The notes under the pieces were generated by a model that saw only the letters and a program-made list of their open reading frames with translations, was not told the DNA's origin and made no database searches. A DNA stretch of 64,000 bases, from sequence record PV636258.1, one strand, 5' to 3'. Within the stretch, counting starts at the first letter, position 1, and each line of letters begins with the position of its first letter. A program made the position numbers and the translations under genes. This DNA is from a phage. This document shows positions 31,265 through 31,582 of the stretch, one piece after another.

Positions 31265-31582
31265 TTACTTGCGCAGGGCAACGACGAGTTCAGCTAACTC
31301 TCCGAGGGTAGGATCATCTCCATGTTTACCCACCCACTCGTCACTAATTTCTACATCGTACTCTTCTTCGATTTCCATGACCAGCTCAATCATGTCAAGA
31401 TCGTCACCGCCGAGATCATTCTTAACCCGTAACGGCGCTAAAGCATCGATATTATCATCAATGTTATCAAACTTGTCCTTGTGATCCCCGTTGCGCCAAG
31501 TTTCCATGTTCAGGTTGTCACAAGCGTACTGAGCCAGAACACGCATTACTTCAACATAAGTTGGTTTGTTTGACATAAGCAT
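31265..31582 (-). CDS. acyl-carrier-protein-like protein with Asp in place of the phosphopantetheine-attachment Ser
   Basis: [27 protein letters not shown] aligns with ACP helix II ([27 protein letters not shown]); codons GAC GAT CTT GAC verified on the DNA. Confidence 0.7.
   Translation of the reverse strand: [105 protein letters not shown]

Follow-up and report, generated by a model that had tools for sequence, protein, structure and literature searches.

An acyl carrier protein (ACP)-like gene on the minus strand of phage sequence record PV636258.1 appears to encode an ACP fold that has lost the means of carrying an acyl chain. In the 64,000-nucleotide stretch of this record that was analyzed (the window), the gene encodes a 103-residue protein with Asp59 at the position of the serine to which phosphopantetheine is attached in ACPs. 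All of the family members that were collected have aspartate or glutamate at this position, whereas the acidic helix II through which ACPs dock on their partners is retained. The gene family had already been catalogued; what appears to be new is a phage family that combines a strictly acidic replacement of the serine with an intact docking helix. Residues are numbered on the 103-residue form throughout (Asp59 is residue 61 of an alternative 105-residue form), and coordinates are collected in Table 1.

An ACP-fold family without the attachment serine

The minus strand reads CTC GGC GGT GAC GAT CTT GAC ATG (LGGDDLDM) across the attachment site, which gives the helix II motif DLGGDDLD in place of the DLGADSLD of canonical ACPs. 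An earlier note, made from this DNA alone, had reported an aspartate in place of the serine of the DSL motif within the codons GAC GAT CTT GAC. Both the codons and the alignment of Asp59 with the serine were confirmed.

When 5.8 billion proteins were searched for homologues, 38 cluster representatives (103-113 residues) were retrieved. An exhaustive profile search, run on 1.84 billion representatives, brought in full-length members at greater distance (P0039-P0043, P0045, P0048, and P0049; 34-50% identity). Residue 59 was tallied for these 38, nine further cluster representatives, and IMG/VR loci, together 53 distinct sequences. It was Glu in 44 and Asp in nine, at identities down to 34%, and no other residue was found; the members with Asp are the Vi01/Kuttervirus group and a small number of others. 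A neighbor-joining tree of the family requires at least five switches between the two residues. Relatives have GAT or GAA as the codon, and pairwise dN/dS against Kuttervirus relatives is 0.03-0.10 in the ACP-like frame. Since Asp or Glu is present in every family member and is encoded by GAT or GAA, Asp59 is neither a sequencing error nor a strain-specific variant. The earlier note had named two findings that would overturn its claim, a profile search without ACP-fold homology and homologues that uniformly keep the serine, and neither was obtained. The alignments and dN/dS values identify loss of the serine as a conserved family trait under purifying selection.

Phosphopantetheinyl transferases (PPTases) transfer phosphopantetheine to a serine hydroxyl at the N-terminus of helix II. 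Serine occurs just twice in the phage protein, as S2 and S78, and neither is conserved. An alternative attachment residue was considered and rejected, as the one invariant hydroxyl residue, T/S90 of the DDP[TS] motif, caps helix IV and not helix II; it is the counterpart of AcpP T63/T64 and was taken as a structural cap. With no hydroxyl at the site, no other conserved serine, and established PPTase chemistry, no loadable form is expected. The protein is thus predicted to be unable to become holo-ACP and hence to carry an acyl chain, and the conserved DSL serine by which functional ACPs are recognized is replaced by an acidic residue across the family. In the literature on the family we found annotation-level mentions and one mass spectrometry peptide only, with no remark on the missing serine, and we found no study of an ACP S36D or S36E variant.

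Homology to ACPs, which the earlier note had read from a helix II signature, was borne out by profile searches and structure prediction. The Pfam PP-binding model (PF00550) matched over helices II-IV with 30.7 bits against a gathering cut-off of 20.8 (E 3.7e-7), and phrog_4154, named "acyl carrier protein", matched residues 3-105 of the 105-residue form on profile positions 1-108 of 108 (E 1e-56). A phmmer search of PDB sequences gave 113 matches at E <= 1, and all 60 of the matches listed are ACPs. The top match was B. subtilis ACP (2x2b; E 4.6e-8), with Asp59 aligned on the phosphopantetheine serine. A profile search of the PDB returned ACPs exclusively. None of the NCBIfam ACP models reached its cut-off (the best, NF002148, scored 40.5 bits against 71, and TIGR00517 scored 37.5 against 70.45); all of these scores are so far below the cut-offs that curated rules would not name the protein an ACP. 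An AlphaFold2 model built with 24 homologues (mean pLDDT 88.8, pTM 0.83) is a four-helix bundle whose long helix, residues 59-73, begins at D59. The top 50 PDB neighbors of this model found by Foldseek were all ACPs, most with target-normalized TM scores of 0.7-0.77 (range 0.54-0.78 for full-length alignments and 0.42-0.64 for seven partial ones). By profile match and predicted structure, the protein is a genuine ACP-fold protein. A PDB search found no solved structure for the family.

Comparison with bacterial AcpP showed a shared four-helix fold, a nearly identical helix II (DLGxD-x-LDxxELVMxxEEEF), the same docking residues, and similar acidity (pI 4.16 and net charge -16 for the phage protein; pI 4.05 and -15 for AcpP). 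The two differ at the serine, which is Asp or Glu in all phage members, and in length (~78 residues for AcpP). Two insertions are found in the phage protein only: one of ~25 residues in loop I (residues ~22-48), which adds short helices, and one of 3-4 residues, GxxGDDPT, ahead of helix IV.

Conservation in the family is highest in helix II, the "recognition helix", and the loop that follows it. D58, L60, I63, E64, M67, E70, and P89 are invariant across the widest alignment (down to 34% identity), and I77 and D79 are nearly so. E71 is invariant in a 24-sequence alignment (A1) and is S, D, or C in four of the most distant members. These positions include the equivalents of E. coli ACP D35 (D58), E41 (E64), E47 (E70), E48 (E71), I54 (I77), and D56 (D79). 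Enzymes of fatty acid synthesis (FAS) and Lpx enzymes bind this same ACP face. Neutralizing D35, E41, or E47/E48 of E. coli ACP abolishes modification by AcpS, with which these residues form ion pairs (bioRxiv 10.1101/2025.01.28.635281). The pattern of conservation is that of a preserved ACP docking face from which the carrier chemistry is gone. Beyond the generic ACP surface, further residues are invariant only in this family: Y7, Y17, N21, R50, K52, W81, G83, and D87-D88-P89-T90 (alignment A1).

Over positions 30800-32200, the window matches Salmonella phage Chennai (MN953776.1; Ackermannviridae, Cvivirinae, Kuttervirus) at 100% identity and E. coli phage CBA120 at 97%. GenBank and RefSeq start the gene (chennai_163; CBA120 orf142; product name "acyl carrier protein") at the second of two in-frame ATGs, at 31576. 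The upstream ATG, at 31582, would give the 105-residue form (31265-31582), with Met-Leu added. Most homologues start at the Met of the 103-residue form, and the Vi01-type representatives P0001 and P0002 are called two codons further upstream. The gene is present at full length (>=80% coverage) in 271 phage records, with hosts in Salmonella, Klebsiella, Escherichia, Dickeya, Shigella, Enterobacter, and Serratia, and is a core gene of the Ackermannviridae (Vi1-like phages). Two metagenomic sequences, P0044 (80 residues) and P0053 (54 residues), are shortened versions with unrelated sequence past residue ~40-55. A frameshift or misassembly probably explains them, rather than genuine short isoforms.

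Serine-less ACP-like proteins elsewhere and related systems

Viral ACP genes from outside the Ackermannviridae mostly retain the serine: the DSL motif was kept in ~56 of 61 IMG/VR loci, with Glu (L025, L027), Arg (L035), or Ala (L068, L069) in the exceptions. Asp or Glu at the site was seen in ACP-like proteins of several independent phage-like contigs. P0082 (L094 6001-6249; DDLD) is encoded beside ribonucleotide reductase, a protein with a Pfam dUTPase domain, Gam, thymidylate synthase (ThyA), and dihydrofolate reductase. P0055 (L096 6001-6297; DELD), which also has a DDPT motif, is encoded near ThyX, and the gene at L027 5986-6300 lies directly upstream of an archaeo-eukaryotic (AEP) primase gene. 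An AdoMet decarboxylase gene is also among the neighbors of this D/E set. The group of P0054, P0055, and P0196 is rare, and tblastn with two D/E proteins from other phage-like contigs against known phage genomes gave no match. P0056 and P0057, the nearest relatives that contain the serine and a DDPT-like motif, had nothing informative in their genomic contexts.

Many further D/E matches are proteins of 113-178 residues with a signal peptide and a lipobox cysteine (P0087, P0111, P0117, P0139, P0144, P0156, P0160, P0166, P0167, P0178, P0180, and P0185; all metagenomic and unnamed in their source databases). These are apparently exported lipoproteins whose ACP fold would be permanently unloadable. 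The search profile was built from D/E sequences, and the proportions of Asp and Glu among its matches are therefore biased. The substitution nevertheless clearly recurs in sequences from outside the Ackermannviridae. Its occurrence both in phage contigs and in lipoproteins that are putatively exported points to non-carrier ACP domains as a broader class not yet described, and also allows a purely structural reason for an acidic residue at the N-terminus of helix II. This recurrence was absent from the earlier note, as were the predominance of Glu at the site, the core status of the gene, and a second hairpin at 31232-31263.

Phage ACPs that contain the serine (phrog_5934 and most IMG/VR viral ACPs) are likewise small viral ACP-fold genes annotated as auxiliary metabolic genes. 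They differ from the Ackermannviridae protein in length (~71-90 residues), in lacking its insertions, and in keeping the DSL serine, so that they are presumably loadable by host AcpS. One phage ACP, not further specified, has been predicted computationally to bind host FabZ (bioRxiv 10.64898/2026.03.01.708874).

Two other systems have an ACP fold without a prosthetic group. In the mitochondrial ACP of Plasmodium falciparum, the serine is replaced by Phe, a hydrophobic stand-in for acyl-pantetheine. The P. falciparum protein, which lacks phosphopantetheine, is essential purely as a binding partner that stabilizes Isd11-Nfs1 (Falekun et al. 2021, PMC8547962). The phage protein resembles it as an ACP fold retained under selection without the serine and, by prediction, without the prosthetic group. 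It differs in having an acidic replacement and no identified LYR-like partner, whereas the Plasmodium protein is eukaryotic and organellar and has an LYR protein, Isd11, as partner. Growth inhibition by the second system, E. coli apo-ACP, was reported by Keating, Carey and Cronan in 1995. Apo-ACP inhibits glycerol-3-phosphate acyltransferase more strongly than holo-ACP does and causes growth arrest; SpoT does not bind it (review, PMC3896788). The ATPase of MukB needs AcpP and accepts the apo and holo forms equally (PMC8602292). As an ACP without its prosthetic group that docks on and blocks client enzymes, apo-ACP is a functional model for a phage-encoded mimic. Its accumulation is an artificial build-up of the host's own protein that AcpS can reverse, whereas in the phage protein the unloaded state would be fixed by the gene itself, and inhibition is only predicted.

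Possible functions of an unloadable ACP

AcpS, PlsB, FAS and Lpx enzymes, and MukBEF depend on ACP docking. With the 4'-phosphopantetheine arm gone, the phage protein could act by binding only. The reading that we prefer, tentatively and with less than even confidence, is that it mimics host AcpP, is not loadable, and takes up the ACP-binding sites of host proteins. The acidic face of helix II would dock on basic patches of ACP-client proteins. In the infected cell, the protein would be a dead-end mimic that fills ACP sites with nothing delivered or accepted, like apo-ACP accumulated in E. coli. Candidate targets are those that bind ACP without the prosthetic group or are inhibited by apo-ACP, namely AcpS, the glycerol-3-phosphate acyltransferase PlsB, and the neck of MukB. 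An acidic side chain where the serine once stood would preserve both the stability and the negative charge of the helix II N-terminus, and may be a partial mimic of the holo-form phosphate. Invariance of the docking residues fits the decoy or inhibitor role that the earlier note had raised, in which ACP-client proteins would be bound and the target would be a host protein. That no PPTase, FAS enzyme, or acyltransferase is annotated in CBA120 positions 1-150000 was also counted in favor of this reading. The ACP-like protein has also diverged faster than the vWA protein encoded upstream of it (34-45% and 72-84% identity, respectively, in the same genomes); we counted this in favor of a host-interaction role, rapid evolution being usual for host-interaction genes.

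Several points weigh against an AcpP mimic. Conservation of helix II could equally serve a phage partner or the stability of the fold, and the family-specific invariant residues and the loop I insertion point to a dedicated partner. The top-scoring PDB entries are ACPs of B. subtilis and of mitochondria, not enterobacterial AcpP, so the protein is not a recent copy of its host counterpart. The preference for Asp or Glu may be structural only, at the helix N-terminus, and is also seen in the unrelated exported ACP-like lipoproteins. The advantage to a lytic phage of blocking ACP clients is not established.

We consider it rather unlikely, but deserving of attention, that the protein instead belongs to a phage-encoded complex, or pairs with a single phage protein, as a small acidic subunit or adaptor. 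ACPs are structural subunits in mitochondrial complex I and with LYR proteins, and also with WaaP. The specific version of this proposal has the vWA protein as partner, with D/E59 completing metal coordination at its metal ion-dependent adhesion site (MIDAS). The MIDAS residues D24-x-S26-x-S28, T97, and D127 are invariant (alignment A3 of the vWA protein), and such sites receive an Asp or Glu from the ligand, which would explain why only these two residues are tolerated at position 59. Residues invariant in this family beyond the generic ACP surface are also accommodated well by a phage partner, and one mass spectrometry peptide of each protein was reported from a Vi01-like phage preparation (PMC10892097). 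The ~735-residue vWA gene lies directly upstream of the ACP-like gene in every context examined (Chennai, CBA120, LIMEstone1, CRW-SP2, and L087-L093), even where the ACP-like proteins are only 34% identical, but the entire region is collinear across the family, so this adjacency is weak evidence of partnership. The pairing is also not obligatory. T4-like Straboviridae (GAP161, Thanatos-2, and many Klebsiella and Cronobacter phages) have full-length vWA homologues at 49% identity, and Bacillus phage AR9 and Rhizobium phages have more distant ones (~25%); no ACP-like open reading frame was found within 2.5 kb of the homologues in GAP161, Thanatos-2, and AR9, and 505 phage records have the vWA protein against 271 with the ACP-like gene. 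Conversely, the D/E ACP-like proteins of other phage contigs have no vWA neighbor. A terminator-like hairpin between the two genes and the far stronger conservation of the vWA protein also speak against the pair.

Ocr, ArdA, and gp5.9 are nucleic acid mimics that act as decoys, and the phage protein might similarly be a generic polyanion on an ACP scaffold that neutralizes a protein of the host that binds DNA or RNA, for example a restriction or defense factor. Its net charge and pI, its location in an early- or middle-type region among small uncharacterized genes, and the presence of other D/E ACP-like proteins in replication and nucleotide metabolism modules (primase, ribonucleotide reductase, Gam, ThyA/ThyX) agree with such a role. 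We regard it as improbable, given that the charge does not exceed that of ordinary AcpP and the conserved residues form an ACP docking pattern and not an array resembling a phosphate backbone. Pfam and PHROG searches found no similarity to known DNA mimics; PADLOC was not searched. A carrier with unconventional chemistry, on the carboxylate (ADP-ribosylation, adenylation, or an acyl-phosphate or ester) or on another residue, would account for a site strictly conserved as a reactive carboxylate, but we know of no such modification of an ACP and judge this very improbable. A 168-residue protein encoded two genes downstream (30336-30842, minus strand) is named 'RNA polymerase ADP-ribosylase' in RefSeq relatives. 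This name is doubtful, being backed solely by an alignment (E 8.6e-16) that covers just positions 1270-1425 of a PHROG profile 1480 positions long; Pfam gave no match. In the RefSeq annotation of CBA120 (positions 1-150000 of 157 kb), no transferase, ligase, or acyl enzyme was found, including PPTases, FAS enzymes, and acyltransferases, and no Pfam domain of a PPTase, FAS enzyme, polyketide synthase, nonribosomal peptide synthetase, or acyltransferase was found among the neighbors of the ACP-like gene in the window. Absence of the residue that defines ACP function could finally mark a decaying, functionless remnant of a phage ACP or a miscalled open reading frame. This has almost nothing to recommend it for a gene kept at full length in 271 records at dN/dS of 0.03-0.10, with helix II conserved at 34% identity, a confidently predicted fold, and a peptide detected by mass spectrometry.

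If the protein is an AcpP mimic, phages would have in it a small natural inhibitor of a hub that bacteria cannot do without, and carrier-protein mimicry would be a new means of phage takeover. The protein would then also be a ready probe for ACP interactions that are independent of the prosthetic group. A bolder and more doubtful extension is that phages have repeatedly converted this central cofactor protein of the host into an unloadable 'dead ACP', in the Ackermannviridae and in at least two to three unrelated phage-like lineages (P0055/P0054/P0196, P0082, and L027). These proteins would plug ACP sites on host hub proteins (AcpS, PlsB, the MukBEF neck, and Fab and Lpx enzymes) and would thereby halt or divert lipid synthesis or chromosome organization during infection, with the acidic residue as a partial mimic of the holo phosphate. 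The family would also provide a second, independent case, beside the Plasmodium mitochondrial ACP, of an ACP fold kept for binding alone. This core gene is named "acyl carrier protein" and classed among auxiliary metabolic genes in hundreds of Ackermannviridae genomes, some of them from candidates for therapy or biocontrol against Salmonella, E. coli O157, Klebsiella, and Dickeya. That name would be functionally wrong, because the protein is predicted to be unable to carry anything.

Transcription unit and neighboring genes

Table 1. Features of the ACP-like gene and its surroundings (positions in the window)
Feature	Position	Strand	Evidence
ACP-like coding sequence, 103 residues	31265..31576	minus	Open reading frame list; Chennai and CBA120 annotation; Pfam; phrog_4154; dN/dS
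Asp59 codon GAT, at the phosphopantetheine-serine position	31400..31402	minus	Sequence; alignment to B. subtilis ACP; Asp or Glu in the family
Helix II "recognition helix" and following loop, residues 54-80	31337..31417	minus	Most conserved part of the family
vWA protein, 738 residues, N-terminal vWA domain, MIDAS intact	31620..33836	minus	Pfam VWA, E 3.9e-7; phrog_2426
GC-rich hairpin GGCGGG-GAAA-CCCGCC, terminator- or attenuator-like	31596..31611	minus	Terminator scan; fold z = -3.3
Intrinsic-terminator hairpin GAUCCCCAAC-AAAC-GUUGGGGAUUUUU	31232..31263	minus	Directly after the ACP-like stop; -21.7 kcal/mol, z = -4.2
Sigma-70-like promoter match TTTACT-17-TATTAT, next gene	31193..31221	minus	Consensus scan, 9/12

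The earlier note had placed the ACP-like gene behind its own hairpin, immediately downstream of a large vWA protein, and this arrangement was found as described. A spacer of 43 nt separates the vWA stop from the ACP-like start, and within it lies the hairpin, followed by a T-rich tail, TTCATTTTG. The hairpin is kept at the same junction in eight distinct relatives with other stems, among them GGGGGCG/CGCCCCC, GGCCGGG/CCCGGCC, and AGCCGGG/CCCGGCT; equivalent positions were noted in L011, L020, and L085-L092. The constant position with differing GC-rich stems, that is, with compensatory changes, indicates that the structure and not the sequence is maintained. Some of these relatives lack the T-tract, so the element may be an attenuator or an RNA-stability element instead of a simple terminator. 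The hairpin after the ACP-like stop is the stronger of the two and is conserved in most relatives checked. The promoter match beyond it comes from a consensus scan in which the number of sites was no greater than expected by chance. At the equivalent places, the annotation of LIMEstone1 lists a terminator, the ACP, a terminator, and an 'early promoter'. The hairpins on both sides and the promoter-like site that follows mark the ACP-like gene as the final cistron of its transcription unit, with an internal stem-loop of terminator or attenuator type ahead of it.

The vWA protein is annotated in LIMEstone1 as a confirmed structural protein, and its conservation greatly exceeds that of the neighboring gene products. 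Its C-terminal ~550 residues matched no Pfam family or PDB sequence, and nothing informative for the protein was found in the PDB. In a relative, L087, a 5-hydroxymethyldeoxyuridine (5-hmdU) DNA kinase domain (PF18723, HMUDK_hel) is encoded at positions 1-170, ~8 kb upstream of the ACP-like gene. This kinase is part of the thymidine-hypermodification pathway of Vi1-like phages; a link between the ACP-like protein and that pathway was dropped, as neither adjacency nor a mechanism was found. The immediate neighbors of the ACP-like gene had no informative Pfam or PHROG domains, with two exceptions. A 290-residue protein (34156-35028, minus strand) has an N-terminal Phage_gp49_66 domain and a C-terminal ryanodine-receptor repeat (RyR) domain, and a DUF3268 zinc-finger protein (35037-35411) adjoins it.

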